Assembly (NCBI GenBank): GCA_016196885.1
Contig: JACPWU010000024.1
Location: 45,994-77,993, forward strand
Length of the DNA: 32,000 bases
Origin: Chlamydiota bacterium
GTDB taxonomy: Bacteria; Auribacterota; JACPWU01
Direction: 5' to 3'
Both the position numbers and the translations under genes were made by a program. The notes under the pieces were generated by a model. It did no database searches. It was not told where the DNA came from and worked only from the letters and a program-made list of their open reading frames with translations. Of this stretch, positions 1 to 29,985 are shown piece after piece (positions within the stretch are counted from its first letter, which is position 1; every line of letters starts with the position of its first letter).

Positions 1-1429
1 GCGGTTTTAAATCTATGGCCTGGGCGAGGCTCATCACATCTTTCATTTCTTCTTCTACCAGATTTTCTGAGGCTTGAAAGGCCCGCTCTTGCATCCGTTG
101 TAGCGCAGGAATCCTCTGGAGAAGGTGCATGAACCAATCTTCACGAACGCCGGTCGCGATGAGCATGCCGATGGCCGTCACGGTTCCTCCGAAGAGCGTG
201 GCCAAATCTTTTTCAACAAGGTTGATGGCCCATGCGACAATCACGATTCCTGTGGTAAAAGTTCCAATCCAAAATCCTAAGCCCCGTCTTCCCAGGCCCC
301 ATCTCAAAACATCGAGGCTGAGCGATGAAAAAACGAAGGCGCCCAAGAGACCGAAGGCATACATGTCGCCGAGGAGAGCCATTTTCCCTTGTGTCATCAG
401 AATGATAAAAATGGGAAAAAGGGTGGCAATGAAAATAGCAATGTGCGGGGTGTTGAATTTTGAATTTCGGGCCGTGATACCGCTGGGGAGAAAGCCTCTG
501 TTGGCCAGGGCTAAAAAAACATTGTACGTTCCGATGATGGCTGTGTTGGAAGCAAAGAGAAGCAGGGAAGATGCAGTCAACACAACCGCAATTTTAGGCC
601 AAAATCCTCCCGCCACAAAGGCCAGCTCAGAAATAAAGTGTTCACTCTGGGTCGCTTTGACATCCCCAGAAAGCATGGCGATGGCCAAGGTCGTGAGTGT
701 GGGACTGGTTAAAACCATGGTCACGATCACGGCCAGCATTGCCACTCGGGTTGTCTTACGCAAAGGGAATCGAATCGCAGGACTGATTTGACTGATGCTT
801 TCCAATCCTGAAAAGGCGAGCCATGAAGCTGAAAATCCGATCAGAAGTTGATAGAAAGACAAATGATGGTAAATCCCGGACAGGGAGCGAAACATCTCTA
901 GCATTTGTGAAAAACTCATGTGAATGAGGCAAAGTCCAATCACGATGAGGTCAATGGCAAATGCACCTAGGGCCATGACGAGGGCCACCGTTGCGCTTTC
1001 TCGAATTCCAATGATGTTCAAGATGGCGAGCACCACCAGACCTGCACAGGCCAGGAGGGTGATATGGACTTCGATGAAAGGAAACACGCTGCTGATATAA
1101 TGAAAACCGGAGACTGAAGAAATCGCCGTGGTCAAAAAATAATCCACAATGATGAGCATTCCTCCCAGGCATCCCCACATGGGGCCAAAGGCCTTGGTGG
1201 TGATGGTCACAACGCCCCCTCCTTCTGGGTTTCGCCAGGCGATTTCTGTGTATTTCAGGGCGAGGAAAATGAAGCCCAAGGTGGTGAGAAGAACGAAAAA
1301 AGGGGTCGCATCTTGGACATGGCCGTACAAAAGACCCGGGACATAATAAATAGAGGTCCCAATGTCACAAAAAACAACAGCCCATGCCAAAAGCCAATTC
1401 AGTTGTCGTGTATCTCGTGTCGGTTGCAT
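1..1429 (-). CDS. APC-superfamily amino acid/polyamine permease, partial (C-terminus lies beyond the left edge)
   Basis: The reverse frame is open from ATG (complement of 1427-1429, GGGGGGA 6 nt upstream) to position 1. Hand translation gives MQPTRDTRQLNWLLAWAVVFCDIGTSIYYVPGLLYG...FSGLESISQISP..., a series of hydrophobic helices typical of APC permeases. It is absent from the ORF track, probably because it is open at the window edge. Confidence 0.75.
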   Translation of the reverse strand, partial: MQPTRDTRQLNWLLAWAVVFCDIGTSIYYVPGLLYGHVQDATPFFVLLTTLGFIFLALKYTEIAWRNPEGGGVVTITTKAFGPMWGCLGGMLIIVDYFLTTAISSVSGFHYISSVFPFIEVHITLLACAGLVVLAILNIIGIRESATVALVMALGAFAIDLIVIGLCLIHMSFSQMLEMFRSLSGIYHHLSFYQLLIGFSASWLAFSGLESISQISPAIRFPLRKTTRVAMLAVIVTMVLTSPTLTTLAIAMLSGDVKATQSEHFISELAFVAGGFWPKIAVVLTASSLLLFASNTAIIGTYNVFLALANRGFLPSGITARNSKFNTPHIAIFIATLFPIFIILMTQGKMALLGDMYAFGLLGAFVFSSLSLDVLRWGLGRRGLGFWIGTFTTGIVIVAWAINLVEKDLATLFGGTVTAIGMLIATGVREDWFMHLLQRIPALQRMQERAFQASENLVEEEMKDVMSLAQAIDLKP

Positions 1430-1502: not shown

Positions 1503-1579
1503 CAGTCGTGAGTCGTGAGTTGTGAGTAAAAAAATAATGCTTTTCAAACTCACTACTCACGACAGACGACTCACGACTG
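1503..1579. repeat. Long imperfect hairpin built from tandem GTGAGTY heptamers (array A), followed by an unpaired CTCAC-rich run to 1617
   Basis: Left arm is CAGTCGTGAGTCGTGAGTTGTGAGT (1503-1527). Right arm is ACTCACTACTCACGACAGACGACTCACGACTG (1548-1579), the near reverse complement. Confidence 0.8.
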
Positions 1580-1715
1580 CTTTTAAAAAACTCACGACTC
1601 ACCTCTCACCCCTCACAGTTTTTTCATCGTTGTTACTTCTTTACCATCCTGTCAGGAAAACACCACTTGGCGCTTATTTCTTATTCGCGTTCGAGAGAAT
1701 TTATTTTTAATAATT

Positions 1716-1731
1716 TGGCATAGAATGTGCT
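1716..1731 (+). promoter_or_regulatory. Candidate sigma-54 (-24/-12) promoter for the glnK-amtB operon
   Basis: TGGCAT-AGAAT-GTGCT compared with consensus TGGCAC-N5-TTGCW. GG (1717-1718) and GC (1729-1730) have the canonical spacing. It lies about 100 nt upstream of the glnK start. Confidence 0.55.
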
Positions 1732-1828: not shown

Positions 1829-2167
1829 GTGAAACTGATCAAAACGATTATTCAACCTTTTAAGCTTAATGATCTTAAGGATGCTCTTCATAATCTAGGC
1901 GTTCAAGGAATGACAGTCAGTGAAGTGAAGGGTTTTGGGCGTCAAAAAGGACATAAGGAGATGTATCGGGGGAGTGAGTACGAGCTTGAATTTATTCCAA
2001 AGGTGGAAGTGGAAACAGTGGTGGCGGACGACATGGTGGACAAAGTCATTCAAACCATTTCCGACACGACTCGAACCGGAAAGATCGGCGACGGAAAAGT
2101 TTTTGTGATTCCGATTGAGACGGCGGTGCGGATCAGAACCGGTGAAAGAGGCGAAAAAGCTCTTTAG
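1829..2167 (+). CDS. glnK: P-II family nitrogen regulatory protein
   Basis: 112 aa. GTG start 6 nt after AGGAGA. T-loop GRQKGHKEMYRGSEY with the Tyr51 position, and TGKIGDGKVFV. It is operonic with amtB. Confidence 0.95.
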   Translation: MKLIKTIIQPFKLNDLKDALHNLGVQGMTVSEVKGFGRQKGHKEMYRGSEYELEFIPKVEVETVVADDMVDKVIQTISDTTRTGKIGDGKVFVIPIETAVRIRTGERGEKAL

Positions 2168-2223
2168 GCAAGAGGCGGTTTAATCAGGTCCATTCTAAAA
2201 TCTGAAGGAGAGAAGGAGGCGTT

Positions 2224-2400
2224 ATGGCGGTAGGCACAACAAAAACATCGGGCTGGGCGCTGTTTTGGTTTTTGCTAGGATTTGCCCTTTTAGGGACAGC
2301 CGGAGTGGGGGGTGGTATGATCAGTTTGCTGGCAGGCTTTGTGGTGATTGTAATTTCAGGATTTATCTTTAAAGCGGCTCGAAAACAGGAGGCGGTATGA
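2224..2400 (+). CDS. Small (58 aa) two-helix membrane protein, hypothetical
   Basis: ATG 7 nt after AAGGAGG. MAVGTTKTSGWALFWFLLGFALLGTAGVGGGMISLLAGFVVIVISGFIFKAARKQEAV. It is below the ORF-track size cut-off, and its stop overlaps the next start (ATGA). Confidence 0.5.
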   Translation: MAVGTTKTSGWALFWFLLGFALLGTAGVGGGMISLLAGFVVIVISGFIFKAARKQEAV

Positions 2401-2579
2401 GGCTCATTGGACTTGCGTGCGCATTGGGAGGTTGGGTTTTGGCTGTTTCAGGTTTATTGGTAACCTCTTCCAATGGGGGGCGACTTGCTTTTGCTTGTGG
2501 TGGGATTGCCTTATCCATTTTTGGGATTCTCGGGGTTTTGAATCGTTATTATTTAAAGCGTGCCATTTGGAAGAAATAA
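2397..2579 (+). CDS. Small (60 aa) two-helix membrane protein, hypothetical, with the same architecture as the preceding ORF
   Basis: MRLIGLACALGGWVLAVSGLLVTSSNGGRLAFACGGIALSIFGILGVLNRYYLKRAIWKK. ATGA-coupled to the upstream mini ORF, and it ends 17 nt before the amtB start. Confidence 0.5.
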   Translation: MRLIGLACALGGWVLAVSGLLVTSSNGGRLAFACGGIALSIFGILGVLNRYYLKRAIWKK

Positions 2580-2596
2580 AAAGGAGAGAAAATTTT

Positions 2597-4210
2597 ATGA
2601 GAGGGTTAAAACTTAAGGCGCAAATCCTTTTAGCAGTGATCGGGATCGGCACGCTTTTGTCGTGTGCGGCTTCCGTGAAAGCAGGTGCATTAACCGATGA
2701 AGACGTGAGCAGTATCAAGGGCCCCGACACATCTGAAATTGCTGCGAAGGGGGATCCGGGGGCCGAGATGACTGGAACGGCGAATGATGTTTCTGTTTCG
2801 GATACGAGCAAGGGCTTGTCACTCGCCGATTTGGTGAATCAAGCAGGGCAGAATAAAATTGCCATTAATTTTGTCTGGACCCTGATCACAGGTTTCTTGG
2901 TCATGTTCATGCAGGCCGGTTTCGCCCTTGTAGAAACAGGGTTAATCAGGGCGAAAAACGCAAATCATACCATGATGATGAACTTTATGGTGTATGGTTT
3001 GGGTCTTTTTGCGTATTACGTCTGCGGCTTTGCCATTCAAATGGGGGGCTGTGCACCCATAGCAAACTTGGGTGGAGTCTATCCCTTGAATCATGAGTTT
3101 GCGATTAATCTTTTTGGAAAACCCTGGGCTTTGTTTGGGACCAAAGGATTTTTCTTAAGCGGGACTACCTATGATGTGGGTGTGATGGTTCTTTTCCTAT
3201 TCCAAATGGTGTTTATGGATACGACCACTACGATTGTCACAGGTTCATGTGCCGAGCGCTGGAAGTATTCTGCGTTTTGCGTTTCCAGCATTGGCTTGGG
3301 GGCCTTGATCTATCCATTATTCGGTAACTGGGCCTGGGGCTGTGGCTGGCTTTCTCAACTGGGCGTGAATTTTGGCCTGGGTCATGGCTATTGTGATTTT
3401 GCAGGATCCGGCGTAGTTCATGCGGTAGGAGGGATTACGGCTCTCGCGGTGGCCATGCAATTGGGCCCTCGCATTGGAAAATTTAACAAAGATGGAACGC
3501 CCAACGCGATTCCAGGGCATGATATTGTTTTGGTGCTCTGTGGATGTTTCATCCTGGCTTTCGGTTGGTTTGGATTTAATCCAGGCAGCACGCTGGGCGC
3601 TTCTGGCAACGGCTGTTTGAGGATTGGGAGCGTAGCAGTCAATACCATGTTGGCCGGTTGCACAGGTTCCTTTGGCGCTCTTCTCTACATGTGGATACGC
3701 TACGGAAAACCCGATGCCTCTATGGCGGGGAACGGATTGTTGGCGGGGTTGGTGGCCATCACGTCGCCGAGCGGTTTTGTGAATCCCCTGGCCTCAGCGG
3801 TGATCGGATGGATTGCAGGTGTTTTGGTTTGTCTGGCTGTAGAATTCTTCGATCGTGTTCCGAAACTTGATGATCCGGTGGGCGCGATGTCGGTTCACGG
3901 GGTGAACGGTTTGTGGGGAGTGATTGCCGTCGGACTTTTTGCCGATGGTCGCAGCAATTACGGTGGCAGTTGGAATGGAGTCTCGGGAGGTGTTAAAGGT
4001 TTATTTTATGGAGATGCCGGCCAGCTCGTTGCTCAATTGATCGGTGTAGCGACACTTGTCGGTATCATCTTTACTCTGTCCTTCGTCTGGAATTGGCTTG
4101 TGGATGTGGTGGTGGGTCAGCGTTCCAGTGCCCAGGCTGAGATGGAAGGGCTGGACATCCCAGAAATGGGAGCACTTTGCTATCCCGATTTCCAACTGAA
4201 AGCAGAATAA
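2597..4210 (+). CDS. amtB: Ammonium transporter (Amt family) with signal peptide and N-terminal extension
   Basis: In-frame ATG at 2597 after AAGGAGAGAA. MRGLKLKAQILLAVIGIGTLLSCAAS signal sequence. Amt signatures FMQAGFALVETG, DFAGSGVVH, FGFNPGS. The track ORF start at 2417 overlaps the mini ORFs and is unlikely. Confidence 0.95.
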   Translation: MRGLKLKAQILLAVIGIGTLLSCAASVKAGALTDEDVSSIKGPDTSEIAAKGDPGAEMTGTANDVSVSDTSKGLSLADLVNQAGQNKIAINFVWTLITGFLVMFMQAGFALVETGLIRAKNANHTMMMNFMVYGLGLFAYYVCGFAIQMGGCAPIANLGGVYPLNHEFAINLFGKPWALFGTKGFFLSGTTYDVGVMVLFLFQMVFMDTTTTIVTGSCAERWKYSAFCVSSIGLGALIYPLFGNWAWGCGWLSQLGVNFGLGHGYCDFAGSGVVHAVGGITALAVAMQLGPRIGKFNKDGTPNAIPGHDIVLVLCGCFILAFGWFGFNPGSTLGASGNGCLRIGSVAVNTMLAGCTGSFGALLYMWIRYGKPDASMAGNGLLAGLVAITSPSGFVNPLASAVIGWIAGVLVCLAVEFFDRVPKLDDPVGAMSVHGVNGLWGVIAVGLFADGRSNYGGSWNGVSGGVKGLFYGDAGQLVAQLIGVATLVGIIFTLSFVWNWLVDVVVGQRSSAQAEMEGLDIPEMGALCYPDFQLKAE

Positions 4211-4366: not shown

Positions 4367-4434
4367 TTGTTATGAAAGTGGATCATGGAACATGGATGGT
4401 GGATGTTGGATTCCTTTCTCTCGTTCAAGCTTGT

Positions 4435-4550
4435 GTAGTCGCCCGATTTATCGGGCAGCCCCATAAATGGGGCGACTACAAAATAAGGGAGGCGAGGTAG
4501 GGCGGGGCTTTCATTGCACACGATGACCCCCAAAAGGGTCATTGAAATTA
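4435..4550. repeat. Mosaic REP/MITE-like palindromic element, copy 1 (core plus module B)
   Basis: Core is GTAGTCGCCCGATTTATCGGGCAGCCCCATAAATGGGGCGACTAC (4435-4479). Module B is CTTTCATTGCACACGATGAcccccaaaagggTCATTGAAATTA (4508-4550). Both recur at 19702-19831, and the core also recurs at 29577-29714. Confidence 0.75.
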
Positions 4551-4567: not shown

Positions 4568-4652
4568 TAAGTGCTTGAGTGTCTGAGTGCTTAAGTTAAA
4601 GGGAGAATTTGTTTTTACTTAAGCACTTACGCACTTGTTAACTTAAGCACTT
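4568..4652. repeat. Long imperfect hairpin built from tandem GTGCTTRA-type octamers (array B)
   Basis: TAAGTGCTTGAGTGTCTGAGTGCTTAAGT (4568-4596) pairs with ACTTAAGCACTTACGCACTTGTTAACTTAAGCACTT (4617-4652). Confidence 0.8.
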
Positions 4653-7316: not shown

Positions 7317-7326
7317 TTAAAAAGAA

Positions 7327-7421
7327 GGGTTTAGGGTATAGGGTTTAGGGTATAGGGCATAAGGAATTTGATTAAATAAAATCCTTATTTCCCTAAGCCC
7401 TACACCCTATACCCTAAACCC
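7327..7421. repeat. Long hairpin built from GGGTTTA/GGGTATA heptamers (array C) between the two tRNA genes
   Basis: GGGTTTAGGGTATAGGGTTTAGGGTATAGGGCATAAGGA (7327-7365) pairs with TCCTTATTTCCCTAAGCCCTACACCCTATACCCTAAACCC (7382-7421). Confidence 0.85.
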
Positions 7422-7473
7422 TGTTTTAAAAATTAGCGGGGGTTGGATTTGAACCAACGACCTTCGGGTTATG

Positions 7474-8127
7474 CATACCACTACAGCTTTCGCTGCGTCT
7501 CTCAGAGAATTTCTGAGAGCTTTGTGGTCTGGACTTTCTCTTCACCCTTTCTACAAAATAGAGGAGGGTGCCTGCCGTCAAGTCTCTACGCCTTCTCCGA
7601 CGCATGTCAGAGCTTGGTTCGGGATTACCCCGCACGTGGCTTCCCCGAGTTTGACAGGTGATCTCAGATAAATTTCTTTATCTGAAGCCCACTGAAAAAT
7701 AAGATTCCAAGCATCGCGATAGTTTGCGGAACTAGGTTTTCGCTGTCGCTTGTTCGTTTCGACCATGTGAATTTCACTACCATAGTCGATGAATACGGCT
7801 ATAGGAAAGACATAAAACAAATTAAGGTCAGCCAAAAAAACCAGGGCGAAATCAAAATCTACAGCCTGATAAGGCTGCCTCAACATGACCCTACGATTTG
7901 TTTTCGTTCGGCGATTATCGACTACATAATTCCCAGAAGGTTTATCAAACCATGCTGTTTTGACCTGAATCTTGACTAAAGTTTCCTCTATGTCAAAGAC
8001 AAGATCATATGGAAGCCGATCGCCAACGGGTTTCAGAACACCCCAACCACGCTTCAGTGCTTCGAGTGTGGCTGCTTGTTCTGCAATGTCTCCCTTTAGC
8101 TTGGTACTCAAATGAATCTCTTTCTTG
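7474..8127 (-). mobile_element. Group I (IC3-like) self-splicing intron with an endonuclease ORF in the P1 loop
   Basis: The 5' exon ends in U and the intron ends in G. Core strings GTCAAACTCGGGGAAGCC and GAAGGCGTAGAGACTTGACGGCAG (core at 7573-7589) match the Azoarcus/Anabaena tRNA intron cores from memory. Candidate guide GTGGGCTT (7692->7685) pairs with GGGCT|CA. P2 hairpin is TCAGATAAAGAAATTTATCTGA. Confidence 0.8.
7578..8111 (-). CDS. Intron-encoded PD-(D/E)XK homing endonuclease (I-Ssp6803I-like)
   Basis: 177 aa with a TTG start 7 nt after AAAGAG. KGDIAEQAATLEALKRGWGVLKPVGDRLPYDLVFD...LVKIQVKT fits a PD...(E/Q)xK nuclease core. The last ~35 codons read through the ribozyme core. Confidence 0.7.
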   Translation of the reverse strand: MSTKLKGDIAEQAATLEALKRGWGVLKPVGDRLPYDLVFDIEETLVKIQVKTAWFDKPSGNYVVDNRRTKTNRRVMLRQPYQAVDFDFALVFLADLNLFYVFPIAVFIDYGSEIHMVETNKRQRKPSSANYRDAWNLIFQWASDKEIYLRSPVKLGEATCGVIPNQALTCVGEGVET

Positions 8128-8220
8128 AGCCCGACGAGCTACCAGGCTGCTCTACCCCGCAGTATGTAAATCGCACATACTATATCCTAGGATATGTGCA
8201 AACTCCAGATTTTTTTGTGA

Positions 8221-17260: not shown

Positions 17261-17405
17261 TCAATGATGGGAATTTTCAATGACCCATTTCAAATTACAA
17301 ATGAATGATCCAATTTCCAATTTCCAATGACTCAAGATTTGGGAAGTTGGTCATTGCAAATTGGGAATTAATTTATAATTTGTTTATTGGTAATTTGTCA
17401 TTTGT
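17261..17405. repeat. Long imperfect hairpin built from CCAATTT heptamers (array D), preceded by a TTTCAATGACCC module-B-like motif
   Basis: CAAATTACAAATGAATGATCCAATTTCCAATTTCCAATGAC (17291-17331) pairs with GTCATTGCAAATTGGGAATTAATTTATAATTTGTTTATTGGTAATTTGTCATTTG (17350-17404). Confidence 0.75.
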
Positions 17406-17438: not shown

Positions 17439-18440
17439 ATGTTTCCCATTCATCGTCCGAGAAGATTAAGACAAAGTGAATGCTTGCGAAGATTGTTGAG
17501 AGAGACCTCTCTTTCACGAGATCATCTCGTTTATCCTCTCTTTGTAAGACCTGGACATAAGGTTCGCAAAGAAATTTCTTCCATGTCAGGCATCTTTCAA
17601 TTTTCCATTGATTCCCTTTTGAAAGAAGTAGAAGAGGTGAGTAAACTTTCTATTCCTGCGATTCTTCTTTTTGGCATTCCAGAGTCGAAAGATGAAAAAG
17701 GCAGTTCCTCTTACCAGAAAGAGGGGATTGTTCAAAAAGCGGTTCGAGCGATTAAAAAAGAATTTCCTGATTTAGCTGTCATCACCGATGTTTGTTTATG
17801 TGCTTATACCATCCATGGACATTGCGGGGTCGTTAAAAGACAGAAGTCAGAAGACAGAAGTCAGAAGTCAGAAGTTTCTATTGATAATGATGAAACATTG
17901 CCACTTTTACAGAAAATGGCGCTCTCTCATGCGCAAGCAGGGGCTGATATGGTCGCGCCGAGTGCGATGATGGACGGGATGGTCAAGAGACTTCGAGAAG
18001 GTCTTGACGGAAATGGCTTTGAACATCTTCCCATCATGTCGTATTCCGCAAAATTTGCTTCCCATTTTTATGGGCCCTTTCGGGATGCGGCTGAATCTCC
18101 TCCTCAATTTGGAGACCGCAGAGGTTATCAAATGGATTTTGCCAATGGACAAGAAGCTCTCAGAGAGGTTGCTCTGGATATTGAAGAGGGTGCCGATATT
18201 GTCATGGTGAAACCGGCTTTAGCGTATTTGGATATTATTCGAAGAGTGAAAGAAAAATTTTCCATCCCCGTTGCCGCTTATCATGTGAGCGGAGAGTATT
18301 CTATGGTGAAGGCAGCGGCTCAAAAAGGCTGGCTCAGCGAAAAAGAAATCGTCATCGAAATTCTCACTTCCTCCCTCCGGGCGGGTTCCCAAATTCTGAT
18401 CACCTATTGGGCCAAGGACATCGCCGGTTGGTTGAAATGA
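17439..18440 (+). CDS. hemB: Porphobilinogen synthase (delta-aminolevulinate dehydratase), Zn type
   Basis: [14 protein letters not shown] is the Cys-rich Zn site. Also [20 protein letters not shown] and IVMVKPAL with the Schiff-base lysines. Confidence 0.95.
17841..17875 (+). repeat. Five tandem CAGAAGW heptamers inside hemB (array E, one-armed)
   Basis: CAGAAGT CAGAAGA CAGAAGT CAGAAGT CAGAAGT, encoding part of [15 protein letters not shown]. Confidence 0.85.
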
Positions 18441-19701: not shown

Positions 19702-19831
19702 TAATTTCAATGATCTTTCGAGATCATCGTGTGCGATGAAAGTTCTTCCCATCGTGTTTTTTTGTAGTCGCCCGATTCATCGGGCAATCCATGCAAGGGG
19801 CACACGGCAGCCCCATAAATGGGGCGACTAT
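19702..19831. repeat. Mosaic REP/MITE-like palindromic element, copy 2 (module B plus extended core)
   Basis: Module B is TAATTTCAATGAtctttcgagaTCATCGTGTGCGATGAAAG (19702-19742). The core is GTAGTCGCCCGATTCATCGGGCAATCCATGCAAGGGGCACACGGCAGCCCCATAAATGGGGCGACTAT (19764-19831). A further small palindrome GCCGACctcaGTCGGC follows. Confidence 0.75.
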
Positions 19832-19930
19832 AAGGGTGATTTTCATCCCCCCTTTGTGCCGACCTCAGTCGGCATGAATGTTTCATAGCAATGTGATTAT
19901 ATAAGAAAAAATCAGCCAGAGGTAGATTTC

Positions 19931-21166: not shown

Positions 21167-21488
21167 GCGTGCCCAAGAGCAGAATCACCCCTGACAGGAC
21201 CATGATGACCAGATCCCTTCCGAAGAAATGAATCGTCTTAGATCCGTACATCAGGCATAGGCCTAAAACCATCATGAGAGACAGCCAAATCATGGAGAAA
21301 ATGTTCCAGGACCAGGATAAAGGCACATTGCCCCAAAGGCATAACCTTAAAGTGCAGGAGGGGAGCCATAGCGTACCTGCGCACAAACTCCCCCAATAAA
21401 GAAAATTCCGAACGCGTTTTTTTAGCGCAATCAAAAGTGACACCGCGAGAAGTAGAATAGATATCCCTAAATCCAGTAAAATAGACAT
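21144..21488 (-). CDS. Hypothetical integral membrane protein (about 4 helices)
   Basis: ATG at 21488 gives MSILLDLGISILLLAVSLLIALKK... The alternative TTG at 21533 is possible. Its 3' end overlaps the ATP-grasp gene by 23 nt (convergent). Confidence 0.5.
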   Translation of the reverse strand: MSILLDLGISILLLAVSLLIALKKRVRNFLYWGSLCAGTLWLPSCTLRLCLWGNVPLSWSWNIFSMIWLSLMMVLGLCLMYGSKTIHFFGRDLVIMVLSGVILLLGTLILSFWY

Positions 21489-27903: not shown

Positions 27904-27916
27904 AAATTTATAAAAT

Positions 27917-28042
27917 GAAACCTCTGAAAAAGGCCCATCTGCAACGCTTCCTGCTTCGCTCAGTCGTGCGACGTACGGAAAAATGTACGCCTCCTCCTTT
28001 GCTCGTAGCGCGCTTCCCTCTGGGACCTTTTTGAGAGGTTTC
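27917..28042. mobile_element. 126-bp MITE-like element with ~20-bp terminal inverted repeats and an AAAAT target duplication
   Basis: Left end GAAACCTCTGAAAAAGGCCC (27917-27936). Right end GGGACCTTTTTGAGAGGTTTC (28022-42), whose reverse complement is GAAACCTCTCAAAAAGGTCCC. It is flanked by AAAAT at 27912-27916 and 28043-28047. Confidence 0.65.
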
Positions 28043-28046
28043 AAAA

Positions 28047-28337
28047 TTGAAAGTTCATAAGAAAGTGATCACAGAAGACAGCAAACATTTTGATCTAAAA
28101 ACAAAAGACAAGATCAAGAAGAAGTGTAAGGAATTACTCTCTCATCATCCTGAAGAAGTAGGTGAGCCTCTCCGTTTTGAACTGCAAGGTTATCGAAAGC
28201 TTAAGATATTCAATGACTATCGTGTGGTTTACAAGGTTGAGAAAGAAGAAGTTCTTGTCTTTATCCTTGCCGTGGGAATTCGACGAGACCTTGAAGTCTA
28301 CGAAGAAGCCATCAAGAGATTAGAAAATCAAAAGTAG
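28047..28337 (+). CDS. Type II toxin, RelE/ParE (StbE) family
   Basis: 96 aa, TTG start. ...LQGYRKLKIFNDYRVVYKVEKEEVLVFILAVGIRRD is a RelE-type C-terminal core. Confidence 0.8.
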   Translation: MKVHKKVITEDSKHFDLKTKDKIKKKCKELLSHHPEEVGEPLRFELQGYRKLKIFNDYRVVYKVEKEEVLVFILAVGIRRDLEVYEEAIKRLENQK

Positions 28338-28348
28338 TCAAAAATCTC

Positions 28349-28640
28349 TTACGGATTTGGATCCGTTGTTAAATAAGGATCCGCATCGATGGTTCCGGTT
28401 CCAGAGCTTATTCTGTAAGAGCTACCACTCGCAGGAGCTGCTCCACCCCAATAATTGTTCTCTGCAGAAATACTGATGGTTTCAGGACTCTCATTGAATA
28501 AACCGTAGTCGAAAGATTAAATGTTCCAGGATCAGCAGGAGAATCTACCAGATGGATGTCCATTCCGTCTCCACCATTGAATGATATAACTTTCGATAGT
28601 TGATAGTTAATATTTAACTCTCTCTTGAAGAGGCAGTTAT
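28349..28640 (-). pseudogene. 3' remnant of a parallel beta-helix / secreted repeat protein gene, frameshifted and 5'-truncated
   Basis: The minus strand gives ...SFNGGDGMDIHLVDSPADPGTFNLSTTVYS in one frame. A second frame then gives FNESPETISISAENNYWGGAAPASGSSYRISSGTGTIDADPYLTTDPNP-stop (TAA at 28351-28349). There is no start codon. Confidence 0.35.
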
Positions 28641-28653
28641 GTTTTTTAGAAAA

Positions 28654-29985
28654 TCATGATTTTTCAGAGATATAGCTTAAGATTTTTTCAATGGCTGGTG
28701 TGAAGATCTCTGTTTGGGGAAGGAGGCTTAAGACAAGATAGCCTTCTTGATCAAAATGATAAAAATGTCCAGGGTGAATCAGAATACTTTCTTTTTCCAG
28801 GAGGGAAAGCACCCATGCTTCGTCCGTCAGAATTTTAGGGATTTTAAGGATGGCATACCAGCCTCCTTCTACTTTTAGACATTCACAAGTGGGAAAGTTC
28901 TGGAGGGTGTTTTGAAGGGTTTTTAAATTGGTTTTAAGTCGCTTTTTAATTTGAATTTGTATTGTTTTTGTATGCTTGAAAATTTCAGGAAGTGCTACTT
29001 GAATAGGGGTGTTAACGGACAGATAAGTGTCAGTGATGACTTCTAATCTTTGGCAGGCTTCTTGAACAAGAGATTCAGGGCCATTGATAACGATCCAGGC
29101 TAATTTCATTTGAGGGAGCGCTGCCATTTTAGAGAGGCCGTTCAGGGTAAAGGTCAAAACTTCAGAGCTTTGGGCAAAGCTCATTCTTTCAGTTCTGTTT
29201 TCAAAATCATAATCAAAAAAAACCTCATCTGAAATGAGAGCCAAATCATTTTGCTTTGCAAATTCAACCAGCTTTTTAATTTCTCTTTCCTTAATATAGG
29301 AGCCCGTTGGATTGTTTGGGTTAACCATCAGGATCGCTCGTGTCTTTGAGGTGACAGCTTCGCTTAGAGAGTCAAAATCAATATGCCAAGCATTCTCATA
29401 GGCTAGTTTATAGGGTTTGAGCTCAATGTCGTTCAAATTTCCCAAGAAGTCAAAAAGAGGGTAGCTTGGGCAGGGAATGAGAACATTGTCCCCTGGATTT
29501 GTGAGGAGTCTGAAAAGAAAAGAATAAGCCTCGCTGGTGCTAGAGGTGAGAAAGATTTGGTCAGGATTCAATTTTTGGCATATGCACTTGATTCCCCTTA
29601 GATAGCAAGCGCCATGGCAAGAAGTTGTAGTCGTCCCATTCATGGGGCTGTGCCCCTTGCATGGGTTTGCCCGATGAATCGGGCGACTACAAAGGGAAAT
29701 CAAGTGCATATGCCTATTTAATTTTATTTTCTGCTTTGCATAATATTGAACAATGGCTTGTCGTGCTGAGAGAAGTCCTTTGGGATGAGGATGGTATGAA
29801 TAAATGTGGGGCGAAGTTAAGGCTTTTGAGATTTCTTCGATAGGATATTTAAAGTTGCATCGAGTTGGGTTAGATTTTATTAGATCTAGCACAGGAAGTT
29901 GTGAGTCACGGCGTTTTTGGAGAGCTTTTGAGAGAGAATTGGTTGCCAGTTCCCAGTTTGTACGTTTAGAGAAAGAATTTTTCAT
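28654..29985 (-). CDS. Class I/II PLP-dependent aminotransferase carrying a 50-codon in-frame repeat-element insertion
   Basis: NPNNPTG and LNGLSKMAALPQMKLAW with the PLP lysine. The insertion interrupts ...YYAKQKIKLN|...|PDQIFLTSSTSEAYSF. Confidence 0.85.
   Translation of the reverse strand: MKNSFSKRTNWELATNSLSKALQKRRDSQLPVLDLIKSNPTRCNFKYPIEEISKALTSPHIYSYHPHPKGLLSARQAIVQYYAKQKIKLNRHMHLISLCSRPIHRANPCKGHSPMNGTTTTSCHGACYLRGIKCICQKLNPDQIFLTSSTSEAYSFLFRLLTNPGDNVLIPCPSYPLFDFLGNLNDIELKPYKLAYENAWHIDFDSLSEAVTSKTRAILMVNPNNPTGSYIKEREIKKLVEFAKQNDLALISDEVFFDYDFENRTERMSFAQSSEVLTFTLNGLSKMAALPQMKLAWIVINGPESLVQEACQRLEVITDTYLSVNTPIQVALPEIFKHTKTIQIQIKKRLKTNLKTLQNTLQNFPTCECLKVEGGWYAILKIPKILTDEAWVLSLLEKESILIHPGHFYHFDQEGYLVLSLLPQTEIFTPAIEKILSYISEKS
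29577..29714. mobile_element. REP/MITE-like element, copy 3: family core flanked by 23-bp terminal inverted repeats, inside the aminotransferase ORF
   Basis: TIRs are GGCATATGCACTTGATTCCCCTT (29577-29599) and AAGGGAAATCAAGTGCATATGCC (29692-29714). The internal segment is near identical to 19761-19831 in reverse complement. It is flanked by 10-bp direct repeats ATTCAATTTT (29566-75) and ATTTAATTTT (29716-25). Confidence 0.75.

Follow-up and report, generated by a model that had tools for sequence, protein, structure and literature searches.

The window analyzed here is a 32,000 nt stretch (positions 45702–77701) of contig JACOUD010000058.1, part of the MAG GCA_016178005.1 of an uncultured groundwater bacterium whose proteins carry the NCBI label "Chlamydiae bacterium". 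Its conserved proteins are about 72–75% identical to those of the nearest relatives, and other assemblies of the same genome are identical to it. Self-hits of encoded proteins were used to extend the contig beyond the window, so that 58.4 kb were read in total, and the source-contig loci outside the window are referred to as L136, L131 and L001. Two relatives were compared: a sister genome (GCA_016178055.1, locus L135; PolX 74% identical) that was obtained in the same study, and a third relative (GCA_964640155.1, locus L133; PolX 75% identical). Near the left end of the window, a permease gene and the glnK gene are divergently oriented, and between them lie a hairpin built from tandem 7-nt units (array A), a palindrome and a sigma-54-type promoter element, as follows (window coordinates):

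1–1429, minus strand: 5' part of the divergent amino-acid permease gene, start codon at 1429–1427
1499–1616, unstranded: array A as a whole, a hairpin of tandem 7-nt units
1499–1528, unstranded: left arm of array A, AAAACAGTC followed by GTGAGTC GTGAGTT GTGAGTA (units at 1504–1527)
1529–1547, unstranded: AT-rich loop of array A
1548–1583, unstranded: reverse-complement arm R1 of array A, ACTCACT ACTCACG ACAGACG ACTCACG ACTG, longer than the left arm by one 7-nt unit
about 1587–1616, unstranded: second reverse-complement arm R2 of array A, ACTCACG ACTCACC TCTCACC CCTCAC, followed by T6 at 1619–1624
1647–1657, unstranded: palindrome TCCTGTCAGGA with core CCTGNCAGG, 63 nt upstream of the -24 element
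1716–1731, plus strand: sigma-54-type -24/-12 element TGGCATAGAATGTGCT (TGGCAT-N5-GTGCT), 98 nt upstream of the glnK start
1829–2167, plus strand: glnK (P-II), the first gene of a glnK-amtB operon

Downstream of glnK are two small ORFs and then amtB, which codes for an ammonium transporter. The AmtB of this glnK-orf-orf-amtB operon (1829–4210) is 77–81% identical to proteins of Acidobacteria and Omnitrophota, and at the corresponding place in the relatives L133 has a different amtB-glnK pair and L135 has none. These comparisons suggest that the operon may have been replaced horizontally, along with the adjacent permease gene. A scan of genome collections with AmtB returned mostly Acidobacteria plus one non-syntenic Omnitrophota contig and, since the glnK-amtB pair looks horizontally acquired, the loci retrieved in this way were used as controls only. 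Directly upstream of the permease start (1437–1486), the homopolymers C7-A8 and G7 surround a 29-nt segment, and these tracts may pair or vary in length.

Array A has copy numbers of 3.4 + 4.4 + 4.3 (TRF and our own scan). As single-stranded DNA, the segment 1495–1625 folds with -27.6 kcal/mol (z = -7.0), and none of 200 shuffled sequences was as stable. The T6 that follows R2 on the plus strand resembles the tail of a terminator, yet no plus-strand gene lies upstream, and array A failed as a terminator on this account. Further arrays are present in the window, some paired as hairpins, some unpaired and one within a coding sequence:

4376–4412, unstranded: unpaired degenerate heptamer array, NTGGATN x5, just 3' of the amtB terminator
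4569–4652, unstranded: array B, a hairpin of 8-nt units AGTGCTTG / ACTTAAGC, ending 15 nt before the start of a TPR gene
7321–7427, unstranded: array C, GGGTTTA/GGGTATA x5 plus reverse-complement arm, filling the spacer that separates tRNA-Met from the 3' exon of tRNA-fMet
17291–17404, unstranded: array D, CCAATTT x3 facing an arm that is degenerate, with the core of the hairpin at about 17310–17365
17835–17875, plus strand: in-frame heptamer array, AGAAGWC x6, inside hemB (17439–18440), with the same unit as hairpin F1 (below)
28593–28617, unstranded: unpaired array of the heptamer TTGATAG (x3.6), located between a ParE-toxin ORF (ending at 28337) and the 3' end of a minus-strand aminotransferase ORF (28654)

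Array C (copy numbers 5.1 + 4.6 by TRF and our own scan) has 53-nt arms with 79% complementarity and is clearly more stable than its shuffles (z = -9.0; 0/200 shuffles as stable), as is array B (z = -4.3; 0/200). Our scan for arrays paired with their reverse complement found three such pairs in the window, whereas 50 dinucleotide shuffles gave none. The hairpins with tandem 7–8-nt arms proposed for A, B and C in a preliminary description of this DNA are confirmed. Array D is a marginal case: the CCAATTT x3 arm stood, and the full reverse-complement array claimed for it did not, as a clean array occurs on one arm only and the opposite arm has about 1–1.5 reverse-complement units (z = -3.3; 2/200 shuffles as stable). 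Rfam searches with array C returned sub-threshold plant microRNA models only, which match any long hairpin, and an identification as an Rfam RNA was rejected. The neighboring initiator tRNA-fMet gene (7434–8160, minus strand) is interrupted by a group I intron of 654 nt (8127 to 7474), which scores 49.4 bits against the Rfam Intron_gpI threshold of 50 and contains an ORF (7578–8111) for a PD-(D/E)XK (PDDEXK_5) homing-endonuclease-like protein. When joined, the two exons give the fold of a tRNA-Met(CAT) that has initiator features, and the tRNA-fMet gene of L133 (17388–17461) is intronless. The array within hemB encodes a 14-residue stretch in the surface loop after the HGHCG motif of porphobilinogen synthase. 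In the relative L089, this loop contains heptamers of another kind (GAAACTN x5), and other relatives have a non-repetitive insert or none.

The arrays are not confined to the window. Nine hairpin arrays were counted in the 58 kb of the source contig, or about one per 6.5 kb, consisting of A to D and five more, and two further hairpins were found in the sister genome:

L136 3829–3906: hairpin G1, GTTTCAT x5 plus reverse-complement arm
L131 193–269: hairpin F2, unit AAAARTG
L131 3894–3996: hairpin F1, GAAGACA / TTCTGTC
L131 6445–6502, minus strand: hairpin F3, ATGTGCCT x3.5 plus reverse-complement arm
L001 5851–5954: hairpin E1
L135 1701–1819 and 3869–3941: hairpins of the sister genome

A census of arrays with at least 2.8 copies gave 14 period-7 arrays in 48.7 kb of the source contig, as against 0.20 per 48.7 kb in shuffled sequence and 0.64 in a control set of 1.5 Mb of unrelated bacterial loci, while periods 5, 6 and 9–12 were at background in the source contig, with no enrichment. 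About two thirds of the intergenic arrays are paired in inverted orientation. The sister genome is similarly rich (eight period-7 arrays in the 21.7 kb of L135, two of them being the hairpins), and L133 has almost none, despite a kinship similar to that of the sister. In the controls, a single heptamer hairpin was seen, in an unrelated Acidobacteriota (L011 1574–1670; TTCAGGG x6.4 followed by a reverse-complement array x4.4), and the architecture therefore arises sporadically elsewhere. Logan assemblies of two sequencing runs were 100% identical over B and C, so these two arrays are not artefacts of one assembly, and Logan contigs carrying the GlnK, TPR and GT2 proteins of the window were likewise 100% identical to it. 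A metagenome scan with a lineage-specific 411-aa protein returned distant relatives only (at most 54% identity), which also served as controls.

Although alike in architecture, the hairpins share almost no sequence. They align neither to one another nor to REP copies of the same genome, with the sole exception of D and E1 (the latter upstream of the window), which have a 23-nt motif in common (ATTTTCAATGAYCCATT). The loops, termini and flanks of the hairpins are alike no more than by chance, and no conserved core was found among them; GAATTTG, present in the loops of B and C, was considered as a common core and rejected, as it occurs 15 times in the contig. Only array C contains GGG, and A, B, D and the other hairpins are without G tracts. 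The nine hairpins represent eight distinct units in 58 kb, a sample compatible with about ten or more classes genome-wide. Within about 80 kb, the only recurrent units are AAGACAG (F1 and hemB) and AAAARTG (F2 and L135), and because these two recur, the statement that the units are unrelated holds for the sample and may soften genome-wide. For arrays A to D, comparison bore out the earlier claim that their four units are unrelated, and the wider view of a family defined by architecture and not by sequence is upheld by the nine hairpins in 58 kb and two in the sister, which do not align with each other in a test that readily aligned REP copies. That positive control was provided by a GTAG-tagged REP/REPIN family of inverted pairs (TTGTAGTCGCCCGATTNATCGGGC ... 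GCCCCATAAATGGGGCGACTACAA; 4431–4483, 19762–19833 and 29625–29692 of the window, L136 1611–1688 and L135 4757–4824), whose copies align at E = 1e-8 to 1e-19. Since the REP copies align strongly and the hairpins do not, the arrays are not diverged REP members, and the two outcomes that the preliminary description had named as fatal to its view, absence of the arrays elsewhere and their collapse into one REP/MITE family, were not observed. In the sequence covered, no RAYT-type transposase was noticed. Both genomes also contain another family of dispersed inverted repeats (AGACCTCTGAAAAAGGCCC ... GGACCTTTTTGAGAGGTCT; 27916–28043, L135 13059–13216 and 13745–13869), with arms about 86–88 nt apart; the window copy lies between an antitoxin gene and a toxin gene.

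These comparisons bear on the idea that the hairpin arrays are small non-autonomous mobile elements (MITE- or SDR-like) with tandem-repeat ends, which were inserted and did not grow in place. D and other spacer-filling hairpins do resemble insertions when set against the orthologous sites, D and E1 have their common 23-nt motif, AAGACAG is found at two loci, and in Nostoc small dispersed repeats are reportedly embedded in heptamer repeats. However, the hairpins have no common core, loop or terminal sequence, the arm alignments revealed no flanking direct repeats of the kind left by target-site duplication, and the pairing of shared terminal inverted repeats with such duplications that defines a MITE was not found. 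The GTAG REPINs and the AGACCTCTGAAAAAGGCCC inverted repeat, which are real dispersed families, are conserved across the two genomes, whereas the positions of the hairpin arrays differ between source and sister. A mobile origin is, on balance, decidedly unlikely.

Array A is the only one of the nine hairpins sited in a divergent promoter region, and the preliminary description had placed it at enhancer distance from a sigma-54 promoter and proposed that it might act as a binding array. The distance it gave (139–215 bp) is right, with TGGCATAGAATGTGCT at 1716–1731 and array A 137–213 bp 5' of this element (R2 about 100–129 bp). The promoter itself also stands. In a search of the window for TGGCAY-N6-TGCW, TGGCATAGAATGTGCT was the sole match (0.23 expected), and the 58 kb contain only two sigma-54 motifs, the second being an exact match (TGGCATTAAAATTGCT; L131 8435–8450, minus strand) that lies 79 nt upstream of glnB-glnA in the right orientation. 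In L133, a sigma-54 motif (TGGCATGGTATTTGCT) is found 70 nt upstream of its own amtB-glnK operon. Given these motifs upstream of glnB-glnA and of the L133 amtB-glnK operon, the assignment of a sigma-54 promoter to glnK is well supported as a prediction. Among the control loci from the AmtB scan (mostly Acidobacteria), none had a sigma-54 motif upstream of glnK, and in the 58 kb read, including the surroundings of a PTS-EIIA gene, no gene for RpoN or an enhancer-binding protein was found.

If array A were the upstream activating sequence (UAS) of this promoter, an NtrC-like protein would bind the heptamers and contact the polymerase by DNA looping. The array lies at the stated distances upstream of a well-supported sigma-54 element, in keeping with the 80–200 bp expected of such sites, and inverted repeats could in principle bind dimers. 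Its position relative to the -24/-12 promoter of a nitrogen-regulated operon is that of an NtrC-type UAS, but it is without the usual 17-nt dyad, and a search with the NtrC consensus gave no match near A. The sigma-54 promoter of glnB-glnA has no array within 300 nt, that of amtB in L133 has none in its promoter region, and there is no sigma-54 motif in the neighborhood of the eight other hairpins built in this way. What the two sigma-54 promoters of the contig do share, at typical enhancer distance, is the CCTGNCAGG palindrome: the core occurs four times in 48.7 kb (0.62 expected), and the glnB counterpart of TCCTGTCAGGA, GTCCTGACAGGG, lies 95 nt upstream of its -24 element. A further copy of the palindrome (ACCCCTGACAGGACC) is present at 21187–21201. 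The enhancer reading of array A has, in our estimation, very little chance of being correct. The palindrome TCCTGTCAGGA at 1647–1657 is more likely to be the enhancer than array A and is a candidate site for a nitrogen regulator, and array A is most likely a passenger in the promoter region, presumably a neutral one, although it may have some role in DNA bending or in binding a protein.

Of the nine hairpins, six occupy short gaps separating genes of the same orientation and begin at the stop codon of the preceding gene or close to it; another is found between two tRNA genes, and yet another 3' of glnA. The last of these, F3, is situated 19 nt past the glnA stop codon and has a T8 tract behind it on the strand of that gene, and it is therefore a canonical intrinsic terminator made of octamer repeats. 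In F1, the left arm (GAAGACA repeats) has a Shine-Dalgarno sequence, and the hairpin encloses the start codon, pairing the leader with the first codons of a gene for an SNase-type nuclease that is secreted; the hydrophobic core of its signal peptide is encoded by the TTCTGTC repeats of the right arm. Through G-U pairs, the sense RNA folds more stably than the antisense by 23 kcal/mol in F1 and 13 kcal/mol in B. All this would be expected if selection maintained the hairpins chiefly for what they do as RNA stem-loops (termination, stabilisation or processing between cistrons, translation control) and the repeats were only their way of growing. Against such a general role, eight of ten hairpins have little or no strand bias in folding, A is upstream of both divergent genes, amtB has its own canonical terminator upstream of B, and the positions are not conserved between the related genomes. 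As most hairpins fold equally well on both strands, selection at the RNA level is not general; some copies seem to be used in this way, and RNA selection as the main reason for the arrays is unlikely.

How the arrays arose is indicated by the arms themselves and by the orthologous spacers. Differences in arm length correspond to whole units (7 nt for A, a single octamer for B and for F3, about five units for the sister hairpin L135a), and in A and C the complementarity reaches into the non-repeat flanks. Together, these two features suggest that the palindrome came first and that each arm then expanded or contracted independently. The preliminary description had recommended a comparison of orthologous intergenic regions, and this found relatives without arrays at the sites of D, C and the amtB promoter. 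Array D occupies a 179-nt spacer between the MBL-fold gene and hemB that is missing in relatives, three of which have these two genes either overlapping by 4 nt or 96 nt apart. The tRNA-Met/tRNA-fMet spacer of L133 has merely an 8-bp hairpin at the site of array C; a derivation of C from this small hairpin was considered and set aside, as the homology of the spacers is too weak to prove it. The local generating mechanism suggested earlier fits the period-7 excess, the whole-unit arm differences and the array-free orthologous spacers.

We consider it probable that array A belongs to an abundant kind of simple-sequence palindrome specific to this lineage, with arms of locally derived 7-nt (sometimes 8-nt) units, which has grown by slippage and is a passenger near glnK. 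The palindrome would originate either in a short hairpin that was already present or in an inverted duplication made by fold-back (template switching), and replication slippage with a strong 7-nt register would then duplicate a segment of the stem or flank, after which whole units would be gained and lost separately in each arm. Because the unit would derive from whatever sequence was present, the copies are alike in architecture and not in sequence. Such elements would be tolerated where frame is irrelevant, as in short operon spacers, between tRNA genes and 3' of genes, and would occasionally become fixed in frame-tolerant coding segments. Some copies may have been co-opted at the RNA level, as for the glnA terminator stem and for two hairpins that enclose or abut a translation start.

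Slippage alone leaves unexplained the inverted pairing of about two thirds of the intergenic arrays and the preference for 7 nt. Possibly, the source and the sister, and not the third relative, have a dedicated or derepressed process that lengthens hairpin stems in 7-nt steps whatever their sequence, perhaps a peculiarity of a polymerase or of repair acting on extruded hairpins; we regard this as rather unlikely. If true, it would define a class of repeat by structure, free of sequence constraint, that the cell has domesticated for termination, for hairpins at translation starts and for parts of proteins (the nuclease signal peptide, the hemB loop).

Among the long simple repeats of many bacteria, those with a 7-nt unit are the most over-represented. 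The value of the present case lies in the contrast between two related genomes with one hairpin array per 6–10 kb and a third, at similar distance, with almost none, since what makes heptamers expand could come to light when the replication and repair genes of relatives rich and poor in arrays are compared. The arrays are seen in use as a terminator stem, around a ribosome-binding site and within proteins. For annotation, repeat arrays near sigma-54 promoters should not be taken as enhancers, and TCCTGTCAGGA is the better candidate for a regulatory site of the nitrogen regulon in this lineage.

The architecture is less unusual than the preliminary description had supposed, since tandem heptamers in inverted pairs are already known from Xanthomonas and Geobacter metallireducens. 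In Xanthomonas, GGGAATC heptamer repeats form 70–75 cases per genome of two close convergent arrays capable of forming a stem-loop (Rehm et al. 2015, PMC4692102). Their length and sequence vary strongly between related species, and similar repeats are present in Nostoc PCC 7120, the units for the two being given as GGGAATC / GGGGAYT (PMC4692102). The arrays described here resemble these in being intergenic, convergent pairs of the same unit, and array C has a quadruplex-capable G3N4 pattern. In Xanthomonas and Nostoc, however, one G-rich unit dominates the genome, whereas here nearly every locus has its own unit, most of them without G-tracts, and among the hairpins read no G3N4 unit is shared.

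A parallel in architecture is offered by Geobacter metallireducens, which has three classes of sites paired on opposite strands, each with 3–5 tandem units of 7–9 nt; G. sulfurreducens has none of them (Aklujkar et al. 2009, PMC2700814). Common to both cases are paired arrays of 3–5 units on opposite strands at variable distance, an intergenic location and absence from a related species. The Geobacter classes comprise 8–24 pairs each and were read as regulator sites, while no recurrent class is visible in the 58 kb examined here. By analogy, the hairpins could be binding arrays for nucleoid-associated or global regulators, as proposed for G. metallireducens, and their intergenic location and their equivalence in architecture to the class 1–3 sites (PMC2700814) speak for this. 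However, their positions are not conserved between source and sister, arrays also occur inside coding sequence, and the units differ at nearly every locus, so that no single sequence-specific protein could read them. A regulator-binding function is accordingly very unlikely.

The cyanobacterial STRR heptamers and heptanucleotide long SSRs (Mazel 1990 and a 2007 SSR survey, as cited in PMC4692102 and PMC4679880) share with the arrays a heptamer-specific excess, a strong intergenic bias and several units per genome. Two traits of this class were found here as well, namely at least three head-to-tail 7-nt copies and an excess specific to period 7. A heptamer bias of bacterial long simple repeats and its explanation by polymerase slippage are cited in the papers on these repeats. 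As far as STRR are described in those citations, their shared units recur many times and inverted hairpins are not a defining feature; the host in the present case is not a cyanobacterium. Heptamer repeats near start codons are on record for Beggiatoaceae and Nostoc (PMC4679880; bioRxiv 10.1101/2022.06.06.494920). REP and REPIN elements (PMC3733652, PMC3116915) are likewise imperfect intergenic hairpins, often within operons and with possible effects on RNA 3' ends or stability, but they share sequence, which the arrays do not, and the arrays are distinct from the GTAG REPIN of their own host. The present case stands apart by its host lineage, by how densely the arrays occur and by a diversity that approaches one unit per locus.
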